Shown: positions 1 to 11,961 of the stretch, piece by piece | Layout: each line of letters begins with the position of its first letter | Position numbering within the stretch: the first letter of the stretch is position 1 | Assembly (NCBI GenBank): GCA_965649115.1 | Contig: CBFGJN010000058.1 | Location: 1-11,961 of the forward strand | Source of the DNA: a candidate division WOR-3 bacterium | Lineage (GTDB): Bacteria; Hydrothermota; Hydrothermia; LBFQ01; DSFT01 | Reading direction: 5' to 3' | DNA length: 11,961 nucleotides | Made by a program: the position numbers and the translations under genes | The notes under the pieces: generated by a model | The model's input: only the letters and a program-made list of their open reading frames with translations | What the model was told of the DNA's origin: nothing | The model's database searches: none

Positions 1-143
1 CCACCCTAATAATAAGCCTTCGGCTTATAAATGCCCATTTTTCGGTCTAGGGGGGCTTTGTCCCCCATAAAATTTTTAATTTCCTTAAAATTTTTGTAAG
101 TTATTGATAATCAAGGACTTAACACTATTTACTAGACAAAGCA
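1..143 (+). mobile_element. MITE-like element copy A (left end outside window)
   Basis: Hairpin ATAAGCC-TTC-GGCTTAT 12-28; GGGGGGC-TTT-GTCCCCC 50-66; double IHF-like site 97-121; right TIR TTACTAGACAAAGCA ending 143. Confidence 0.85.
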
Positions 144-159
144 ATTTAAAATTGTCGTG

Positions 160-341
160 TGCTGTGTCTAGTAATTTTGAAAAAAATATATATTTTATTA
201 TATTTTTCCCTCTCACCCTGAAAATAAGGCTTCGCCTTAAAAACTTTGCCCCTAAAATCTCCCCATTAAATCAATAGTTTCATTAAAGATTTTACAAGTC
301 ATTGATAATCAATTACTTAACATTATTTACTGGACAAAGCA
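160..341 (+). mobile_element. MITE-like element copy B (182 bp)
   Basis: Left TIR TGCTGTGTCTAGTAA at 160; right TIR TTACTGGACAAAGCA ending 341; hairpin TAAGGC-TTC-GCCTTA 225-239; IHF-like pair 295-319. Confidence 0.88.
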
Positions 342-350
342 ATGGTTTAT

Positions 351-512
351 TGGTGTGTATAGTAATTCTGAAAATAATTATTTTTCTTTATTTGCTCACC
401 TGCTCTAAAATCAAGCCTTCGTCTTATAAATACTCCATCTTTTGCTATGGGGGAATTTGTATCTAATAATTTTTCCCTCCATAAAATCCCCCCAATTTAC
501 TAGACCAAAGCA
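351..512 (+). mobile_element. MITE-like element copy C (short, degenerate, no IHF module)
   Basis: Left TIR variant TGGTGTGTATAGTAA 9 nt after copy B; right TIR TTACTAGACCAAAGCA; flanks ATGGTTTAT / ATTGTTTAA (7/9 identical). Confidence 0.8.
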
Positions 513-1321: not shown

Positions 1322-1330
1322 AGTTTTAAA

Positions 1331-1336
1331 AGTTTA
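1331..1336 (-). promoter_or_regulatory. Putative -10 box (TAAACT), 9 nt before ATG 1321, no SD
   Basis: Minus strand reads CCTT-TAAACT-TTTAAAACT-ATG; same context as at 7042, 8396 and 11265. Confidence 0.45.
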
Positions 1337-1344
1337 AAGGTTAA

Positions 1345-1486
1345 ATTATTTTTATTTGTTTCATTATGTTCTGCCCACCCGCCCTGAAAATAAAACCATC
1401 TTTTGCCTTGTGGAATCAAAAATTTTCTTAAAACTTCTATAAGTCTTTGATAATCAACAACTTAACAATAATTATTGGATAAAGCG
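1345..1486 (+). mobile_element. MITE-like element copy D (left end eroded, start approximate)
   Basis: GCCCACCCGCCCTGAAAATAA core; IHF-like pair 1440-1464; right TIR TTATTGGATAAAGCG ending 1486. Confidence 0.75.
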
Positions 1487-1495
1487 ATTTAAAAT

Positions 1496-1641
1496 TACTT
1501 TGTCCAATAATAAAGGCTACGCCTTTAAAATTCCCATATTTCGGCAAGGGGGCAATAAACCCCCCATAAAAACTATAATTTTCTTAAATTTTTGTAAGTT
1601 GTTGATAATCAATAATTTAACACTATTTATTGGACAAGGCA
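1496..1641 (+). mobile_element. MITE-like element copy E (internal deletion after left TIR)
   Basis: Left TIR TACTTTGTCCAATAA 9 nt after D; hairpin TAAAGGC-TAC-GCCTTTA 1511-1527; IHF-like pair 1595-1619; right TIR TTATTGGACAAGGCA. Confidence 0.82.
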
Positions 1642-1650
1642 ATTGGAAGC

Positions 1651-1765
1651 TTAAATCAGTAATTTCAGCAATTTTTCATAATTTGCCAACCCACTCTGAA
1701 ATTAAGTCTTTGACTTTAAAATACCCATTCATAAGCTTTGGGGAAATTTGCCCACATTAAACAAC
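1651..1765 (+). mobile_element. MITE-like element copy F (degenerate fragment, ends approximate)
   Basis: CAGTAATTTC, GCCAACCCACTCTGAA, hairpin AAGTC-TTT-GACTT 1704-1716, ATACCCAT and TGGGGAAATTTGCCCAC are colinear with the consensus. Confidence 0.65.
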
Positions 1766-1825
1766 CTTTAAAATTTAATAACTATTATATTTTTCCTTAC
1801 TTACTTTGAATTTAGGGCGGATAAT

Positions 1826-4572: not shown

Positions 4573-4693
4573 TCCTTTGTCAGAATAGTTGCTTGATTTA
4601 ATGTGGGGATTTTATTGGGGGATTAAAAGCATAAAAATGGGCATTTATAAGCCAAAGGCTTATATTTAGGGTGGGTGGAAAAAAGACAAAGCA
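4573..4693 (-). mobile_element. MITE-like element copy G (short, inverted), between convergent genes
   Basis: Minus strand begins TGCTTTGTC...CCACCCACCCTAAATATAAGCC-TTT-GGCTTATAAATGCCCAT; degenerate far TIR TCCTTTGTCAGAATA at 4573. Confidence 0.8.
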
Positions 4694-4713
4694 ATAATTT
4701 TAAATTTTTTTTC

Positions 4714-5630: not shown

Positions 5631-6705
5631 ATATTTTTATTATATCTTTTGTTATACTCGTTAAATTTACAACTTCATTTTTCTCCTTATCAAGATAAAC
5701 AGTGTCCTCTATTCTTATTCCAAATTCGCTTTCAATATAAACACCAGGTTCAATTGTAAAAACTTCATTTCCTTTTAATATCCATTCATCTGCTTTTTGA
5801 CTAAAAGCAGGTAATTCATGAACATCAATTCCAATAGAATGACCAAGTGCATGACCAAAATAATTATCATCATAACCAAAGGACTTTAAATAATCCCTTG
5901 CTATTGAATCAACCTCTTTATTTTTTATTCCAATTTTTGTTTTTTCTTCTACTAAATCTACTGCTTTTTTAACAATTTCATAAACTTTTAAAAATTCTTC
6001 ATTTATACTTGAACCTATCCAAATCGTTCTTGTAATATCACAACAATATCCATCATAAACTAAACCAAAATCTATTAGAAGTGGTTTATTATTTAAAATT
6101 TTTTGATTTGATGGTCTTCCATGTGGCATAGCACTTCTATGAGATGTTAAAACAATTGTTTCAAATGCCATTTTCTCAACATTATATTTCTTTTTTGCTA
6201 TATATTCCATCTCTATTGCTAAATCTCTTTCAGTCATTTTTTCAGGTTCTATAATGTTTAAAATTTCTTCAAAGATATTTTTAGCAATATCACAAGCCTT
6301 CTTAATTTTATTAATTTCTTCATAGCTCTTAATAGCTCTTAAATTCTCAATTATATTGTTAGTGGGAATAAATTCAATATCCCTAAATTTTTCTTTAAAA
6401 CTATTAAGTGTGCTTATTGTAAAATATTTTCCTTCAATAGCTAATTTTTTTATTGGTTTTAAAAGTTCTTCCATGGTTTTGAAATAATCATTATAAATAA
6501 TAATTTCATATTTGGTTTTGTCAATTTTTTCATTAGCGTAAATTTTATACCTAAAATCAGTAATAAAATAATTTTTCTCTTTGGTTATTAAAATTTGGGC
6601 AAATGAACCAGAAAAGCTTGAAAGGTACTTTATATTTGATAAATTTGTAATAAAAAGCCCATCTAAATTATTTTCAGTTAAATAATTACGAAGGTAAGAT
6701 AGCAT
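5629..6705 (-). CDS. Xaa-Pro aminopeptidase/dipeptidase, M24B family
   Basis: Creatinase-like N-terminal domain (TDFRY); metal-ligand motifs IDFG, CDITRT, HALGHSIGIDVHE, TIEPG, RIED. Confidence 0.94.
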   Translation of the reverse strand: MLSYLRNYLTENNLDGLFITNLSNIKYLSSFSGSFAQILITKEKNYFITDFRYKIYANEKIDKTKYEIIIYNDYFKTMEELLKPIKKLAIEGKYFTISTLNSFKEKFRDIEFIPTNNIIENLRAIKSYEEINKIKKACDIAKNIFEEILNIIEPEKMTERDLAIEMEYIAKKKYNVEKMAFETIVLTSHRSAMPHGRPSNQKILNNKPLLIDFGLVYDGYCCDITRTIWIGSSINEEFLKVYEIVKKAVDLVEEKTKIGIKNKEVDSIARDYLKSFGYDDNYFGHALGHSIGIDVHELPAFSQKADEWILKGNEVFTIEPGVYIESEFGIRIEDTVYLDKEKNEVVNLTSITKDIIKI

Positions 6706-7033
6706 TTATCTTCGGTAAAACAATTTCAGGCTTTAATCTTGGATCTTTTTTCCATTCTTCTCTCAAAATTTTTAAAACATTTAAACGAACTTCAATTGGA
6801 TAATTGCTAATAATTGGTTCAATATGTTTTTTCCACAATTCAACACCTCTTTTATATGCCCAACCTCTTATGTTCGTTGGATGTTTTATTAAGAATGTTT
6901 TAGCAATTTCAAGAGCTTTTTCAGTTTCACCTGCTAGCAGAAGTTCAGCAATTTTAGATTCTACTTTATAACTTTTCTTTTTTAACTTTAATTTTTGTTG
7001 TTTTTTAATTTGATACTGCTTCCATCTGCTCAT
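6686..7033 (-). CDS. Hypothetical basic protein
   Basis: 115 aa; ATG start with an upstream -10-like box; overlaps the peptidase start by 20 nt; no recognised family. Confidence 0.7.
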   Translation of the reverse strand: MSRWKQYQIKKQQKLKLKKKSYKVESKIAELLLAGETEKALEIAKTFLIKHPTNIRGWAYKRGVELWKKHIEPIISNYPIEVRLNVLKILREEWKKDPRLKPEIVLPKINAILPS

Positions 7034-7041
7034 ATCCGAAA

Positions 7042-7047
7042 ATTTTA
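7042..7047 (-). promoter_or_regulatory. Putative -10 box (TAAAAT), 8 nt before ATG 7033
   Basis: Minus strand CTT-TAAAAT-TTTCGGAT-ATG. Confidence 0.55.
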
Positions 7048-7069
7048 AAGCATAACTATTTAATCAAAT

Positions 7070-7273
7070 TGCTGTGTCTAGTAATTCTGAAATATAGATT
7101 ATTTCTATATTTTCCCACCCACCCTGAAAATAAGGCTTCGCCTTTAAAGTACCCATATTTCGGCTATGGGGGGCTTTGCCCCCCATTAAAACCCCCCTTT
7201 AATAAATAATTCCAATAAAATCTTTATAAGTTATTGATAATCAATAACCTAACACTATTTACTGGACAAAGCA
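7070..7273 (+). mobile_element. MITE-like element copy H (full length, 204 bp) with perfect 9-bp flanking direct repeats
   Basis: TIRs TGCTGTGTCTAGTAA / TTACTGGACAAAGCA; TAATCAAAT at 7061-7069 and 7274-7282; hairpins 7132-7144 and 7166-7186; IHF-like pair 7227-7251. Confidence 0.92.
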
Positions 7274-7282
7274 TAATCAAAT

Positions 7283-7426
7283 TGCTGTGTCCAGAAATTC
7301 TAAAAATATAATTATTTCTATATTTCCCTCACCTACCCTAAATTCAAGCCTTTTGCTTTAAAATGCCAATTTTTCGGCTGCGGGGGCTCCGTCCCCCTAT
7401 AATTCTCCCATTAATTGAACAAAGCA
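7283..7426 (+). mobile_element. MITE-like element copy I (short, 144 bp) with the same 9-bp repeats
   Basis: TIRs TGCTGTGTCCAGAAA / TAATTGAACAAAGCA; TAATCAAAT at 7274-7282 and 7427-7435; lacks the IHF module. Confidence 0.88.
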
Positions 7427-7481
7427 TAATCAAATTTTTCGGTGTTGGAAGCTTTAATTTCAGACCCACTCCCACCTGACT

Positions 7482-8168
7482 TTAAAAATTATAAATTTTT
7501 AATGCCAAATTTTTAAAAAATTCTATAACTTCATTTATTTCAATAGGTTTTATCATATTTAGAGGGATAAAATTTAATTTTTCTAAAATTTCAATTCTTT
7601 CCTCTATTTCAAATGCAACGCTTGGAGGGTCATCAAATAATTTTTCCTTCCTTCTTGAAAGTTCATAAATTTCATCAAAGTTAAAATTGAAGTTTTTAAA
7701 AATAAAATAAAAATCAATCAAATCTCTAATTTCAAATCTTGAAACAATAGCACAAAGTTTATTGCTTGCTATATTTTCAAGACAATCAACTTTTAGTGTT
7801 CTATCATTCTCAAATTTAAAAACCTTCCTTTCACAATCTATTGAAAGTCTATCTATTACAAAATCAACTTTTATACCAAGAATTTCATAAGATAAATAAA
7901 ATTCTGATATTGATTTTATGCTTACATTATAAGAAAATTTGAACTTTATCCAAAAACTTAAATCATTTAAATTAACATCTGAAATTGTAAAAAAATCTAA
8001 ATCTTCTGAAATTCTATGTCCTAAATAAAAAACTGAAAGAGCGGTTCCTCCAGTTAGAAAAAATTCATTTTTTATAGTTTCATTTTCAAGTAAACTTATT
8101 AACAAATTTCTTTGACTATCTGATTTGTAAGCACTTTTTATTTCTTTAACTGGATAATTCTTTTCCAT
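7482..8168 (-). CDS. AbiEii/AbiGii-family nucleotidyltransferase toxin (type IV TA-like)
   Basis: FFLTGGTAL...HRISEDLDFF signature; downstream NKL...R...RDLID motif. Confidence 0.9.
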   Translation of the reverse strand: MEKNYPVKEIKSAYKSDSQRNLLISLLENETIKNEFFLTGGTALSVFYLGHRISEDLDFFTISDVNLNDLSFWIKFKFSYNVSIKSISEFYLSYEILGIKVDFVIDRLSIDCERKVFKFENDRTLKVDCLENIASNKLCAIVSRFEIRDLIDFYFIFKNFNFNFDEIYELSRRKEKLFDDPPSVAFEIEERIEILEKLNFIPLNMIKPIEINEVIEFFKNLALKIYNF

Positions 8169-8389
8169 TTTTTTCTAGCCTTTGGAGATATTTTAACTTT
8201 ATCAATAAATTCTTCAATTTCAGAAATTGTAAAAATTTTTAAAGTATCAGCAACACTTGCCCTTTCAAGAAATCTTGATAAAATCCATAGATATACTTTT
8301 TCATTATTTCTATTATTATTCAAGAATTTAATTAAATTTTGCTCATCTTGAAAATCACTATAATCCCAAAATACATTTTTCAAATTCAT
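8138..8389 (-). CDS. Small putative antitoxin partner of the AbiEii gene (DUF6922-like)
   Basis: 83 aa; FWDY...ILSRFLER pattern; directly upstream of the toxin ORF and overlapping it by 31 nt. Confidence 0.7.
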   Translation of the reverse strand: MNLKNVFWDYSDFQDEQNLIKFLNNNRNNEKVYLWILSRFLERASVADTLKIFTISEIEEFIDKVKISPKARKKWKRIIQLKK

Positions 8390-8395
8390 ATTAAA

Positions 8396-8401
8396 ATTTT
8401 A
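8396..8401 (-). promoter_or_regulatory. Putative -10 box (TAAAAT), 6 nt before ATG 8389
   Basis: Minus strand CCTT-TAAAAT-TTTAAT-ATG; no SD. Confidence 0.55.
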
Positions 8402-8423
8402 AAGGATAAAAATTGATTTGTTG

Positions 8424-8627
8424 TGCTGTGTCTAAGAATTCTGAAATTATTTATTTTTCTTATTTTGCCCACCCGCCCTGAAATAAAGGCTTCGCCTTTA
8501 AAATGCCCATTTTTAGGCTTTGGGGGGCTTTGCCCCCCATTAGATCCCCCATAAAATCAATAGTTTTATTGAAATTTTCGTAAGTCATTGATAATCAAGC
8601 ATTTAGCAATAATTACTGGACAAAGCA
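8424..8627 (+). mobile_element. MITE-like element copy J (full length, 204 bp)
   Basis: TIRs TGCTGTGTCTAAGAA / TTACTGGACAAAGCA; hairpins 8484-8500 and 8521-8539; IHF-like pair 8581-8605. Confidence 0.92.
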
Positions 8628-8636
8628 GATAAAAAT

Positions 8637-8750
8637 TGCTTTGTCTAGTAATTCTGAAATAATTTATTTTTCTATGTTTTGCCCAACCGCCCTATGAATA
8701 AGCCTTCGGCTTATAAATACCCATATTTGTGCCTTGGGGGGCTTTGCCCT
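8637..8750 (+). mobile_element. MITE-like element copy K (right part missing, abuts alaS stop)
   Basis: Left TIR TGCTTTGTCTAGTAA 9 nt after J; hairpin ATAAGCC-TTC-GGCTTAT 8698-8714; ends within GGGGGGCTTTGCCC. Confidence 0.85.
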
Positions 8751-8753
8751 AAT

Positions 8754-11255
8754 TTAAATAAATAACTTTTTTATTTTATCTTCTAAGTTTTCTAAAATTT
8801 CTAAATTATCCGTTCCTCCTTCTGCTTTAATGTCAGAGCCACCTCCCTTCCCCAAAATTTTTATCATTAGATTATTAGCATTAAATTTATCTTTTAGAAG
8901 TTTCCCAATTCTAAAATGTGCTATAACTTTATCTTCTAATTTTGAAAAAAGAAAAATAAGTAAATCATCTTTTTGTAGGTAATCTGCCAATTTTCTTAAA
9001 AATTCCATATCAGCACCCTTTAAAACTTCAAAATAATATCTATATCCATTAGTTTCTTTTGAACTTATCGTTTTTGAATAAATGCTAATGTACCTATCAA
9101 GTAATTCATTATACTTAACCTGCATATTTTTATTTTCAAGAATAGTCTTTTCTAATTTTTCAGGAATGTCTTTAATATCTGATTTTAATAAAACTGATAC
9201 CTTTTTGAGAATTTCCTCGTTTTCTTTAATGTATTCAAAAGCTCTAATACCAACATAAGCATTTATTCTTCTAATTCCACTACTAACAGCCTCTTCCTTT
9301 ATAATTTTAAAAAATCCAATTTCCCCTGTTCTCCTAACATGTGTTCCTCCACATAATTCTTTACTAAAATCTCCAATACTAACAACCCTAACAATATCTC
9401 CATATTTTTCTTCAAAAATAGCAATTGCTCCTTCATTTATAGCACTTAAATAGTTTTTATATTCCCAAATAACTTCCAAATTTTCTCTAATTTTTTCATT
9501 AACAAGTTTTTCTATTTCATTAATTTCCTTATCACTTAAAGGTTTTGGATGTGAAAAGTCAAATCTCAATCTGTCATTCTCAACTAAGGAACCTTGTTGA
9601 AGTGCATGTTCTCCAATAATTCTATGTAATGAAGAATGTAATAAATGTGTTGCTGTGTGAGCTCTCATATTTGCTTTTCTTAAATTTACATCAACTTTTG
9701 CCAAAACTTCTAAATTATTTAACTTTATATTGTTTTTCAATTTTCCAAATAAAACAATATCTGAGCCTATTTTTTTAGTATCAAAAATTTCAATTTCATC
9801 ATTTTCTAAAACTAAAATTCCCTTATCTCCAACTTGACCCCCACCTTCGGGATAAAAAGGAGTTTCAAATAAAACAATGTAAATTTTATCATTTTCAATT
9901 TTATATTTAGCAATTTTTGTTTTATATTCCATAAAATCATAGCCTACAAATTTCGTTGATTTATAGTTACCGTCAATATAATCCCAATTTTCAATGAGCA
10001 TTATATTCCTTTTCTCCTTAGTCAGTCTTTTCCTTTCATCTAATAATCTATCATAACCTTCCAAATCAAGTTTTAAATTTTTATCTTTTGCATATTCTTC
10101 AATTAAATCCAAAGGTATTCCATAAGTATCGTAAAGCTTAAATATATCTTCACCTTTTATTATATCATTTGAATTTTGGACAATTTCAATTAGATAAACG
10201 ATGTTCTTTCCAATTGTTTGAATGTACTTTTCTTCTTCGTTTTTGATAATTTCTTTAATTGTTTTTAAGTTTTTTGAAATTTCAGGATAAGCATTTTTCA
10301 TAATTTCATAAACTACATCAACAAGTTTATATAAAATTGGTTCATTAACATTTAATTTCTGAGCAAATTTATAAGCCCTTCTTAAAATTCTTCTTAAAAC
10401 ATAACCTCTTGAATAATTACTTGGATAAATTCCATCAGAAATTGCAAATACTAATGCTCTAATATGATCTGCTATAACCCTATGGGGAACTCCCGTTTTT
10501 TCATCATATTTAACACCTGTTAAATTTTCTATTTCTTTAATAATTGGCATAAACAATGAAGTATGATAATTATTATTAACACCTTCAATAACTGATAATA
10601 ATCTTTCTAACCCCATTCCTGTATCTACATTCTTTTTTGGAAGTGGTTCTAAACTTCCATCACTCTTTCTATTGAATTCCATAAAAACGATATTCCACAA
10701 TTCAAGCATTTCATCACCTAAATCATAATGAATCTCTGTTGAAGGTCCACAAGGACCAACATCACCCATTTCCCAAAAATTATCTTTTTCATCAAATTTA
10801 AAAATTCTTTTTTCATCAATTCCAACTTCATCTTTCCAAATATAATATGCTTCATCATCTTTATAATAAACACTAACATATAACTTTTCTTTTGGAATTT
10901 TAAAAACATTTGTTAATAATTCCCAAGCCCATAAAATTGCCTCCCTTTTAAAATAATCTCCAAATGAGAAATTACCAAGCATTTCAAAGAATGTATGATG
11001 TCTTCTTGTAAATCCAACATTATCTAAGTCATTATGTTTTCCTCCCGCTCTTAAGCATTTTTGACAAGTAGTTATTCTTTTTGATGGTGGTTCTGCTTCA
11101 CCTAAAAAATATATTTTAAATTGATTCATACCTGCATTTGTAAAAAGAAGTGTATTATCTCCTCTTGGAAGTAATGAACTTGAAGGATAAATTAGATGAC
11201 CTTTTTCTTTAAAAAATTCCAAAAATGTTCTTCTTAATTCATCAGCTTTTTTCAT
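8754..11255 (-). CDS. alaS: Alanine--tRNA ligase
   Basis: LLFTNAGMNQFK, HHTFFEMLGNFSFGDYFK, DTGMGLER, TPFYPEGGGQVGD, editing motifs HTATH and ELCGGTH, C-terminal GKGGG. Confidence 0.99.
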   Translation of the reverse strand: MKKADELRRTFLEFFKEKGHLIYPSSSLLPRGDNTLLFTNAGMNQFKIYFLGEAEPPSKRITTCQKCLRAGGKHNDLDNVGFTRRHHTFFEMLGNFSFGDYFKREAILWAWELLTNVFKIPKEKLYVSVYYKDDEAYYIWKDEVGIDEKRIFKFDEKDNFWEMGDVGPCGPSTEIHYDLGDEMLELWNIVFMEFNRKSDGSLEPLPKKNVDTGMGLERLLSVIEGVNNNYHTSLFMPIIKEIENLTGVKYDEKTGVPHRVIADHIRALVFAISDGIYPSNYSRGYVLRRILRRAYKFAQKLNVNEPILYKLVDVVYEIMKNAYPEISKNLKTIKEIIKNEEEKYIQTIGKNIVYLIEIVQNSNDIIKGEDIFKLYDTYGIPLDLIEEYAKDKNLKLDLEGYDRLLDERKRLTKEKRNIMLIENWDYIDGNYKSTKFVGYDFMEYKTKIAKYKIENDKIYIVLFETPFYPEGGGQVGDKGILVLENDEIEIFDTKKIGSDIVLFGKLKNNIKLNNLEVLAKVDVNLRKANMRAHTATHLLHSSLHRIIGEHALQQGSLVENDRLRFDFSHPKPLSDKEINEIEKLVNEKIRENLEVIWEYKNYLSAINEGAIAIFEEKYGDIVRVVSIGDFSKELCGGTHVRRTGEIGFFKIIKEEAVSSGIRRINAYVGIRAFEYIKENEEILKKVSVLLKSDIKDIPEKLEKTILENKNMQVKYNELLDRYISIYSKTISSKETNGYRYYFEVLKGADMEFLRKLADYLQKDDLLIFLFSKLEDKVIAHFRIGKLLKDKFNANNLMIKILGKGGGSDIKAEGGTDNLEILENLEDKIKKLFI

Positions 11256-11264
11256 AGTTTGAAA

Positions 11265-11270
11265 ATTTTA
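11265..11270 (-). promoter_or_regulatory. Putative -10 box (TAAAAT), 9 nt before alaS ATG
   Basis: Minus strand TTT-TAAAAT-TTTCAAACT-ATG; no SD. Confidence 0.55.
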
Positions 11271-11292
11271 AAATATAAATTTAAATTTACTA

Positions 11293-11438
11293 TGCTGTGT
11301 TTAGTAATTCTGAAAGTCCTTATTTTATTATAATTTCTCCACCCACCCTGAATATAAGCCTTTGGCTTATAAATACCCATTTTTCGGCTGTGGAGGACTT
11401 CGCCCCCCATAAGTCACCCATTATTTTTGGACAAAGCA
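11293..11438 (+). mobile_element. MITE-like element copy L (short, 146 bp)
   Basis: TIRs TGCTGTGTTTAGTAA / TTTTTGGACAAAGCA; hairpin TATAAGCC-TTT-GGCTTATA 11353-11371; no IHF module. Confidence 0.87.
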
Positions 11439-11440
11439 AA

Positions 11441-11510
11441 GTTTTATTATATTTTTCCCACCTACTCTAAATACAAGTCTTCGGCTTAAAAACTTCATCC
11501 CCCATCAAAC
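11441..11510 (+). mobile_element. MITE-like element fragment M (no TIRs, ends approximate)
   Basis: TTTTATTATATTTTTCCCACCTACTCTAAA and AAGTC-TTC-GGCTT 11475-11487 are colinear with the consensus. Confidence 0.7.
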
Positions 11511-11542: not shown

Positions 11543-11961
11543 TCAGTGTAAAATTATCCTTGAAAGGAAGTATAACAAGATGCTTGAAATAATAGTTATT
11601 GAAAGTCCTAAAATCATTCTTTCAATTCTTTCAGTTCTCTTTTCAAGCCTGTTAATATCGTCCTTTGTGGCAAAATTCTTTTGCGCTTCTTTTAGTTCTC
11701 TAATGTCATCTTTTGTAGCAAAGTTTTCTTGACTTGCTTCAATTTTCTCAATCCTCTCTTCAAGTCTCTTAATATCATCCTTTGTGGCAAAATTCTTTTG
11801 CGCTTCTTTTAGTTCTCTAATGTCATCTTTTGTGGCAAAGTTTTCTTGACTTGCTTCAATTTTCTCAATCCTCTCTTCAAGTCTCTTAATATCATCCTTT
11901 GTGGCAAAATTCTTTTGCGCTTCTTTTAGTTCTCTAATGTCATCTTTTGTGGCAAAGTTTT
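11543..11961 (-). CDS. Partial (5' end outside window) membrane-anchored coiled-coil protein with ATKDD repeats, DUF1640/CCDC90-like architecture
   Basis: Manual translation: ...(NFATKDDIRELKEAQK-NFATKDDIKRLEERIEKIEASQE)x2-NFATKDDIRELKEAQK-NFATKDDINRLEKRTERIERMILGLSITIISSILLYFLSRIILH*, with TGA at 11545-11543. Not in the ORF track. Confidence 0.85.
   Translation of the reverse strand, partial: NFATKDDIRELKEAQKNFATKDDIKRLEERIEKIEASQENFATKDDIRELKEAQKNFATKDDIKRLEERIEKIEASQENFATKDDIRELKEAQKNFATKDDINRLEKRTERIERMILGLSITIISSILLYFLSRIILH
11652..11961. repeat. 117-bp coding tandem repeat (~2.6 units visible), made of 48+69 bp subunits
   Basis: TTAATATC(A/G)TCCTTTGTGGC recurs at 11652, 11769 and 11886; units are near-identical. 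Confidence 0.93.

Follow-up and report, generated by a model that had tools for sequence, protein, structure and literature searches.

The window analyzed in this study is the whole of contig C58, a complete contig of 11,961 bases that belongs to a genome assembly of 1,848,020 bases (1.85 Mb) in 99 contigs with a GC content of 27.6%. The public sequencing runs that contain this contig are mostly hot-spring metagenomes. At the locus of interest, an open reading frame for a 115-aa protein is preceded by a promoter-like host motif, and the upstream region of this gene took a stack of two MITE copies, H next to the motif and I distal to it, which are bordered and separated by three copies of the 9-mer TAATCAAAT (Table 1). 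A Pfam search assigned the 115-aa protein to no family. The orthologues of this gene carry the same motif at the same place in all four other genomes of the genus, and no MITE was found at the orthologous promoter in any of the four.

Table 1. Features of the window, with the evidence on which each was placed
Feature	Position	Strand	Basis and remarks
MITE copies A, B and C	1..512	+	profile and termini; A cut by the contig start, B 160-341, C 351-512
MITE copies D, E and F, all partial	1343..1778	+	profile and termini
MITE copy G, partial, in a convergent gene gap	4591..4702	-	profile
Open reading frame, 115 aa	6686..7033	-	ORF list; start codon 7031-7033, 4 nt from the promoter-like motif
Promoter-like host motif GAAAATTTTAAAG	7038..7050	-	sequence and motif scan; 19 nt before the left end of H
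9-mer TAATCAAAT, motif-side copy	7061..7069	.	sequence
MITE copy H, full-length, 204 nt, motif-proximal	7070..7273	+	nhmmer, profile 1-204, E 5.6e-55
9-mer TAATCAAAT, middle copy	7274..7282	.	sequence
MITE copy I, 144 nt, distal	7283..7426	+	profile 1-140
9-mer TAATCAAAT, distal copy	7427..7435	.	sequence
MITE copies J (8424-8627, 204 nt) and K (8637-8754)	8424..8754	+	profile and termini
MITE copies L (11293-11438) and M (partial)	11293..11492	+	profile and termini

Exactly three occurrences of TAATCAAAT were found in the window by an exact-match count. At least three copies were also obtained in 30 of 200 shuffles, and the bare count is not significant in AT-rich DNA. The significant part is their positions: the copies abut the termini of H and I. 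Under the base composition of the genome, two given 9-mers match by chance with a probability of approximately 0.30^9 = 2e-5, and both pairs do so with a probability of approximately 4e-10. A first-pass annotation of this DNA had described the identical 9-mers as bracketing two divergent units of 204 and 144 bp, one of which lacks a module, and this description was confirmed in all its parts. The termini of H showed no mismatches at either end, and the right terminus of I, at position 7426, showed three mismatches, its right-hand module being absent. H and I are 69.6% identical over the aligned positions, and a 60-nt module makes up their difference in length. The 27 nt of the 9-mers around them are unchanged, while the units themselves differ at 30% of positions. 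Both have closer relatives elsewhere, those of H and I being 89.2% and 85.8% identical, respectively, and located on other contigs. Ordered by relatedness, I is only the 267th of the 276 relatives of H, and H is the 210th of the 272 relatives of I.

A 9-nt separation with a different 9-mer at each locus had also been noted between B and C, D and E, and J and K, and these spacers were found at 342-350 (ATGGTTTAT), 1487-1495 (ATTTAAAAT), and 8628-8636 (GATAAAAAT), respectively. The spacer between E and F is ATTGGAAGC, and the gap between A and B is 16 nt, not 9. The B/C spacer matches the 9-mer after C at 7 of 9 positions, and the 9-mer before B matches it at 4 of 9; the 9-mer before J matches the J/K spacer at 3 of 9. 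Because the spacers of B/C, D/E, and J/K repeat their outer flanks poorly, H/I is the sole clean case in the window of two elements alternating with three identical 9-mers. K is truncated at the stop codon of alaS, and the motif that belongs to J/K lies at 8393-8403. The motif for L/M lies at 11262-11272, upstream of alaS. Copy G is missing at the orthologous site of the sister species. An Rfam scan of the window detected no known RNA family; a sub-threshold match to ALIL inside copy E scored 17.4 bits against a gathering score of 50.

A family profile built from 45 full-length copies gave 730 matches in the genome, which cover 95,830 of the 1,848,020 bases (5.19%). The inverted ends are 14 nt long, with the motif TGCT[GT]TGTC[CT]AGTA on both sides, and 854 termini adjoin profile matches, 230 of them with no mismatch. 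The modal unit length was 200-209 nt (121 of 277 copies). The flanking 9-mers were identical in 105 of the 267 two-ended copies with readable flanks, compared with 0.6 for shuffled flanks, and 8/9 alike in 19 more, compared with 0.85. At the site of a solo copy on contig C4, the sequence of the sister species is continuous and contains the 9-mer once, that is, a clean empty site. The units are thus MITEs that make 9-bp target duplications; they are small, numerous and, judging from their size, non-coding. The MITE family has been active recently, because 53 of the 277 copies have a relative at an identity of at least 98%. The closer the nearest relative, the higher was the proportion of intact duplications, which climbed from 28% to 65%. 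Among the pairs with at least 98% identity, an intact duplication was present in at least one member in 38 of 41 and in neither member in 3 of 41.

Stacking is a genome-wide property of this family. Exactly 9 nt separated the units at 115 of the 137 close end-to-start junctions (within 60 nt), and 8 nt at 10 of them. The two-ended copies were divided into 178 solos and 46 arrays (40 pairs, 5 triples, and one quadruple), three of the 46 arrays being mixed-orientation pairs. In addition, a profile of the right flanks showed that many "solos" have another partial copy 9 nt farther on. When the copies were compared with each other, the neighbour never came out as the closest relative (0 of 106 comparisons) and was within the top five in only 1. 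The mean identity of the 53 neighbour pairs was 0.771, and that of all 37,773 pairs was 0.773. The first-pass annotation had favored a second, independent insertion that re-duplicated the same target over simple tandem duplication, and had predicted that neighbours within an array would not be sisters. Both the proposal and the prediction, the latter also by the relatedness ranks of H and I, are supported by these comparisons.

The spacers and outer flanks were compared in 33 two-copy arrays with 9-nt spacers. All three 9-mers were alike (at least 8/9) in 8 of the 33 arrays and nearly so in 3 more. The motif-side duplication alone was kept in 9 of 33, and the distal duplication alone was intact in 2 of 33, both of which are 1-nt register shifts. 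In 4 of 33 arrays, and in one further array with an 8-nt spacer, the outer flanks were alike and the inner spacer was different, which fits a dimer that moved as one unit. No 9-mer match was found anywhere in 9 of 33; these nine arrays need later deletion, rearrangement, or composite moves. The expectation of the first-pass annotation that spacers repeat the outer flanks at most loci holds only in part. On contig C8, a stack of three units carries three different 9-mers and fits the scheme of repeated target use poorly; the sister species is empty at this site.

Nine spacers recur across loci, and the units that flank them are 0.59-0.85 alike, contig C5 being the exception with one segmental duplication. 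Two dimers, located on contigs C1 and C3, have the common spacer AGAGTTAG(T), similar outer flanks, and units that are 75-76% alike. Recurring spacers were considered as proof of moved dimers; with units of such identity, including those of the AGAGTTAG(T) pair, they are not decisive. Hints of gene conversion were seen in these two dimers, with their common spacer and unlike units, and in copy J, the flanks of which are unlike (3/9) although it shares 95.6% identity with a copy elsewhere in the assembly, on another contig.

A conserved sequence, AAAATTTTAAA, was found in the 60 nt to the left of the stacks in the orientation of the element. With a strict definition allowing at most one mismatch to AAAATTTTAAA, the end of the motif was located 19-20 nt from the left end of the element in 108 cases among 215 left flanks, and no motif peak was observed on the 215 right flanks. 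Of the 173 solos, 83 had the motif at 18-21 nt, as did 24 of the 36 pairs and 4 of the 5 triples; under the strict definition, it was absent at this distance from the other 90 solos and from 14 of 42 arrays. A second, minor distance class at 11-14 nt comprised 34 cases, one example of which is upstream of a tRNA gene. The triplet CAT (the reverse of ATG) was found 3-8 nt past the motif in 77 of 111 cases. These elements are inserted at a fixed distance and in a fixed orientation relative to one host signal, and the position and conservation of the motif suggest that it is a promoter.

Stacks are also polar. The motif-proximal unit was full-length in 27 of 43 stacks, compared with 10 of 43 for the next copy (Fisher p=0.0004). 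The identity to the nearest relative was 0.934 for proximal units and 0.899 for the next ones, the proximal value being higher in 30 of 43 (Wilcoxon p=0.0017). Three independent measures, namely the side on which the duplication is kept, full length, and relative identity, say that the stacks grow at the motif side. By the latter two as proxies of age, the proximal copies appear to be the younger ones, which suggests an order of arrival. According to this genome-wide trend, H would be the later arrival and I the earlier one.

The genome under study (G000) was also compared with that of the sister species (G002), which was sampled as 345 kb (12 of its 180 contigs). Among 19 MITE loci of G000 with both flanks mapped in this sample, 15 were free of MITEs in G002. 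Eleven of these 15 sites were clean gaps of less than 100 nt, and five of the eleven hold two or three matches in G000. The stacks of G002 are likewise spaced by 9 nt (8 of 10 junctions), and one case with like outer flanks and a different inner spacer was found there. The coding DNA of the two species is 88-91% identical; therefore, the comparison is usable for presence and absence only. Dating of units by orthologous copies in G002 was considered and set aside: orthologous neutral DNA is expected to be about as diverged as unrelated MITE copies (77%).

Ten contig ends of the assembly carry an element end that matches the right end of the MITE over the first approximately 22 nt. This end is followed by the N-terminus of a transposase, 19-56 aa long, and then the contig stops, which is the pattern to be expected when a multi-copy element is not bridged by short reads. 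Two fragments at contig ends matched the NCBIfam model NF033579 with 24.4 and 23 bits. A 51-aa N-terminus is 91% identical to P0001, a 300-aa database protein that contains PF13737 and PF01609 and scores 245.5 bits on NF033579 (cut-off, 140). P0001 is in turn approximately 30% identical, over 96-97% of its length, to the annotated transposases of ISVa1 and ISAba10, and 14 of 18 positions of the element end agree with the terminal repeat in an annotated copy of ISAba10. We take ISAba10 to be a member of the IS903 group. The element under study resembles the IS903 group of the IS5 family, of which ISAba10 and, among its MITEs, MITEAba12 are examples, in its 9-bp duplications, in its terminal repeat and, as judged from P0001, in a putative transposase of the PF13737 plus PF01609 (NF033579) type. 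The only transposase found associated with these ends belongs to the IS5 family, and an IS5-family (IS903-like) element is the likely mover as judged from these sequence resemblances. The link between the transposase and the MITE rests on their shared ends, because the full insertion sequence, including its other end, is unassembled. The insertion sequence itself joins the stacks, because 3 of its 10 ends are separated by exactly 9 nt from the terminus of a MITE, one of them (contig C28) apparently tail to tail.

Searches for a complete copy gave the following results. The Pfam families PF01609 and PF13737 had no match in the G000 assembly. In 30 relatives, PF01609 matched 12 loci in 9 genomes, none of them with a MITE terminus, and PF13737 had no match in 7 genomes of the family. 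With the 51-aa N-terminus as the query against the genome and metagenome contigs, the full insertion sequence was not found and the matches were weak and unrelated. Where two termini with like flanks lay 340-8000 nt from each other, no autonomous element was found; these pairs comprised stacks and one 1426-nt unit. This unit, on contig C11, was rejected as an autonomous element; it carries ordinary open reading frames. Consecutive termini 700-2600 nt apart were likewise rejected, since they enclose host genes by the appearance of the products. No repeated genome segment of at least 450 nt encodes a transposase, one set of these having been scanned against Pfam.

Based on the above, we consider that H and I are two separate insertions into one target, made through an IS5-family mover acting in trans, anchoring by the motif, and growth at the motif side; we put the probability of this reading at about 0.75. 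It builds on the duplications, the fixed distance and orientation, the non-sister neighbours, the polarity, and the presence of insertion-sequence ends, all of which are observed in this genome. An IS903-like DDE enzyme of the IS5 family would act in trans, its source being a multi-copy insertion sequence in the same genome. This transposase would set the left end of the element 19-20 nt from AAAATTTTAAA, a few bases upstream of the start codon. Its staggered cut would duplicate 9 bp, so that, after the insertion of I, the 9-mer would remain in register beside the motif. The next insertion, that of H, would use the same 9-mer, duplicate it again, and push I outward, and the outcome would be the order 9-mer, H, 9-mer, I, 9-mer. 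The motif-side 9-mer would be reusable because each insertion duplicates the 9 bp, and it would be used again because insertion is anchored from outside by the promoter-like motif. A stack would then be a time series with the newest unit beside the gene, and the motif-side copy of TAATCAAAT at this locus would be a regenerated target open to another insertion. The way in which the enzyme reads the motif, and the part of this particular insertion sequence as the mover, are presumed here from the shared ends and the fixed distance.

A different account, which we regard as unlikely, is that the target is set by a resident copy and not by a host motif. The transposase would be drawn to element ends and cut the adjoining 9 bp, and any site with a first copy would give rise to stacks. 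Such attraction to their own ends is a property of IS30 and of some IS3-family elements. The arrays in which the motif is absent at 18-21 nt (14 of 42), the insertion-sequence ends lying exactly 9 nt from a MITE terminus (3 of 10), and the mixed-orientation pairs (3 of 46) are in line with this account. However, the 83 of 173 solos located at the fixed motif distance and orientation have no resident copy, and attraction to ends alone predicts growth at either end, but the stacks are polar. Targeting by a resident copy and anchoring by the motif could also act together.

It is very improbable that H and I arose by tandem duplication and that gene conversion, with dispersed copies as donors, later replaced their sequences, the 9-mers being left untouched. 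The C1 and C3 dimers with their common spacer, the unlike flanks of J despite its near-identical distant copy, and the 3 of 41 near-identical pairs without an intact duplication are in line with this account. Such conversion requires tracts that span whole units and end exactly at the termini, including changes in length of 60 nt. Moreover, it leaves unexplained the polarity, the fixed distance from the motif, and the stacks for which the sister species has an empty site.

Local tandem duplication of an element together with its 9-mer, by unequal exchange or slippage between 9-mers, followed by divergence, would yield the same layout of 9-mers and units. It is rejected as extremely unlikely, because neighbours are never closest relatives (0 of 106) and H and I are 69.6% alike; furthermore, the two differ by the 60-nt module around 27 unchanged nt of 9-mers and have closer relatives elsewhere. 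Equally remote is the joint arrival of H and I as a pre-formed dimer moved via its two outer ends, a route that fits the 4 of 33 two-copy arrays and the array with an 8-nt spacer described above and the one case in G002, but is contradicted at H/I because the old inner spacer should differ from the outer 9-mers and all three are identical.

The separate insertion of H and I into one target, with anchoring by the motif, can be extended to a broader proposition, to which we give even odds. In this proposition, an IS5-family (IS903-like) transposase would recognize either the promoter-like motif or a protein that binds there, and insert base-precisely at one position upstream of the motif. Hundreds of promoters would then be regenerating landing pads, and the stacks would be ordered, leader-proximal records of waves of transposition. 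The first-pass annotation had pointed to a formal similarity to the growth of CRISPR arrays or tandem casposons. The formal part stands, in the duplication of the 9-mer, the motif-side polarity, and the anchor. The likeness goes no further than form, because the enzyme associated with these ends is an IS5-family DDE transposase rather than a Cas1-type integrase. The anchoring motif as the reason for target reuse, the polarity, and the family of the enzyme had escaped the first-pass annotation. If the broader proposition is true, the system would be a DDE-transposase counterpart of CRISPR-array growth.

Classical members of the IS903 group are described as only weakly selective in their targets. 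For the IS5 family and the IS903 group, a limited literature search turned up no account of stacking or of oriented insertion anchored at promoters. The nearest precedent is found in other families. According to a preprint, ISKpn21, ISAba54, and ISAju2 of the IS1202 family are stacked at XerCD/dif sites; for ISKpn21 and relatives at dif, four copies with the same 5-bp repeat between them are described, and the proximal copy is judged to have arrived last (bioRxiv 10.1101/2022.12.17.520857). As in our stacks, successive insertions are described there beside one fixed DNA signal, one distal copy lacks a flanking repeat, as do nine arrays here, and different elements may occupy one stack (bioRxiv 10.1101/2022.12.17.520857). 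In contrast to these systems, the signal here is a promoter-like motif at hundreds of genes instead of a recombination site, target duplications measure 9 bp and not 5, and the transposase is of the IS5 and not the IS1202 family. The units here are mostly 204-nt non-coding derivatives, and dozens of stacks occur in one small genome.

In tandem casposons of Methanosarcina, two adjacent elements have only a common target-site duplication between them, which the authors read as one target used twice (Krupovic et al. 2016, PMC4779613). Casposons are described there as large, self-replicating elements that a Cas1 homologue integrates either at a tRNA gene or at a single intergenic site, and their tandem copies are closely related (PMC4779613). 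In contrast, the units within a stack of this genome are unrelated, small, non-coding, and probably moved by a DDE enzyme. Dada DNA transposons, which sit in snRNA and tRNA genes of fish, give a eukaryotic parallel: Dada-U1A and Dada-U1B, from different families, lie in tandem at an identical site with a 6-bp duplication between them (Kojima and Jurka 2013, PMC3706591). Unlike the present stacks, these are single cases of elements of autonomous size with a strict sequence-specific target in a multicopy RNA gene (PMC3706591). The regeneration of a target by its own duplication and its subsequent reuse is therefore already in print for casposons, ISKpn21, and Dada. The present case adds an IS5-family MITE that forms polar stacks at dozens of loci through a target choice anchored at a promoter-like motif.

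Promoter homing is described for TnGBS, ISLre2, and ISKra4, which have prokaryotic Mutator-like transposases (Guerillot et al. 2014, PMC3942029); this transposase superfamily is unrelated to the IS5 enzyme considered here. If the broader proposition is true, promoter homing would be extended from these Mutator-like elements to a second lineage of bacterial transposases that is unrelated to them. The stacks provide a clean natural example, at dozens of loci, of a duplicating integrase and an external anchor that together lead to ordered arrays, and the logic of such arrays, usually discussed for CRISPR and casposons, is found here with an ordinary DDE transposase. In addition, the periods of activity of the MITE subfamilies of this uncultured thermophile can be placed on a relative time scale by means of the stacks. 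Targeting that is base-precise, oriented, and gene-sparing would be worth understanding and, provided that the anchor can be defined, could possibly be borrowed for targeted insertion.

The H/I region (6700-7900) was also compared with the short-read contigs of four public runs. These contigs break within the repeats, and the joints listed for them derive from other copies. No contig of the four runs links 7069 with 7283 or 7273 with 7427, and the runs are thus uninformative on arrays with n versus n+1 units. Contigs of run X1, which may be the source sample of the genome, cover 6700-7095 and 7225-7647 with 0 differences. One contig of run X5, from another study, covers 7250-7534 with 8 differences and includes the end of H, the 9-mer, the whole of I, the next 9-mer, and the flank.

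Within the genus, two genomes were rich in the MITE family (a transposon family of approximately 204 nt with 14-nt inverted ends and 9-bp target duplications), with 49 and 41 scored matches in a comparison of G001 and G004 with G000 and its sister species G002. In a third genome, a single copy was observed, and in two further ones there was none. The expansion of the MITE is therefore lineage-specific within the genus.

A promoter-like motif of the host was found at four positions in the window (see the table). Genome-wide, a start codon was located 3 to 8 nt from this motif in 77 of 111 cases. If the motif acts as a −10-type element, the organism would have many mRNAs with no leader or almost none. 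In addition, the right-hand module of copy H (positions 7210 to 7235) and of the other full-length copies contains a sequence resembling the motif in the opposite orientation; this module is absent from copy I. The motif-like sequence may serve as an outward-facing promoter and substitute for the upstream signals displaced by insertion. For the first GC-rich hairpin in the MITE, two forms were observed, GGCTTCGCC and GCCTTCGGC (7130 to 7147 versus 8688 to 8705, and in other copies). Because the arms are swapped between the two forms, it is apparent that the stem has been kept despite changes on both sides.

Features of the window outside the MITE copies
Feature	Position	Strand	Remarks
Promoter-like motif	1327-1339		
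Promoter-like motif	7038-7050		
Promoter-like motif	8392-8404		
Promoter-like motif	11261-11273		
263-aa ORF	530-1321	−	internal 21/54-nt repeats; no firm Pfam family
AbiEii-type nucleotidyltransferase toxin ORF (228 aa) and small upstream ORF (83 aa)	7482-8389	−	
Three 117-nt tandem repeats, 92% alike	11621-11961		within open-ended ORF 11543-11959

The 263-aa ORF, which has MITE arrays on either side, belongs to a multi-copy gene family; its copy on contig C26 is 89.6% identical, and several relatives were found in G002. The 16-nt gap between copies A and B (144 to 159) starts with ATTTAAAAT, which is also the 9-mer of the D/E spacer (1487 to 1495), 1.3 kb away. The match is either fortuitous, the DNA being AT-rich, or was left by a rearrangement between the two arrays flanking the multi-copy gene. 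On contig C11 (31359 to 32784), a 246-aa ORF lies between two MITE parts, and its short internal peptide repeats apparently resemble those of the 263-aa ORF. A perfect 9-bp duplication, TATATCTTT, brackets the two parts jointly, and this unit looks like a composite transposon with a host gene as cargo. The product of the ORF at 11543 to 11959 is coiled-coil-like, with a weak match to DUF2730. A similar repeat-rich gene is located between two MITEs in G002, and the same locus in G000 (contig C37) contains just a stack.

On the right side of the H/I stack, no synteny was seen with the other four genomes of the genus; at this position, a different neighbor is present in each. No Pfam match was obtained for the 83-aa ORF upstream of the AbiEii-type ORF. 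In the last 126 bases of contig C6, one end of the putative IS5-family insertion sequence abuts a MITE terminus, or the terminus minus its last base, without a 9-nt spacer, unlike the three 9-nt junctions between these elements.
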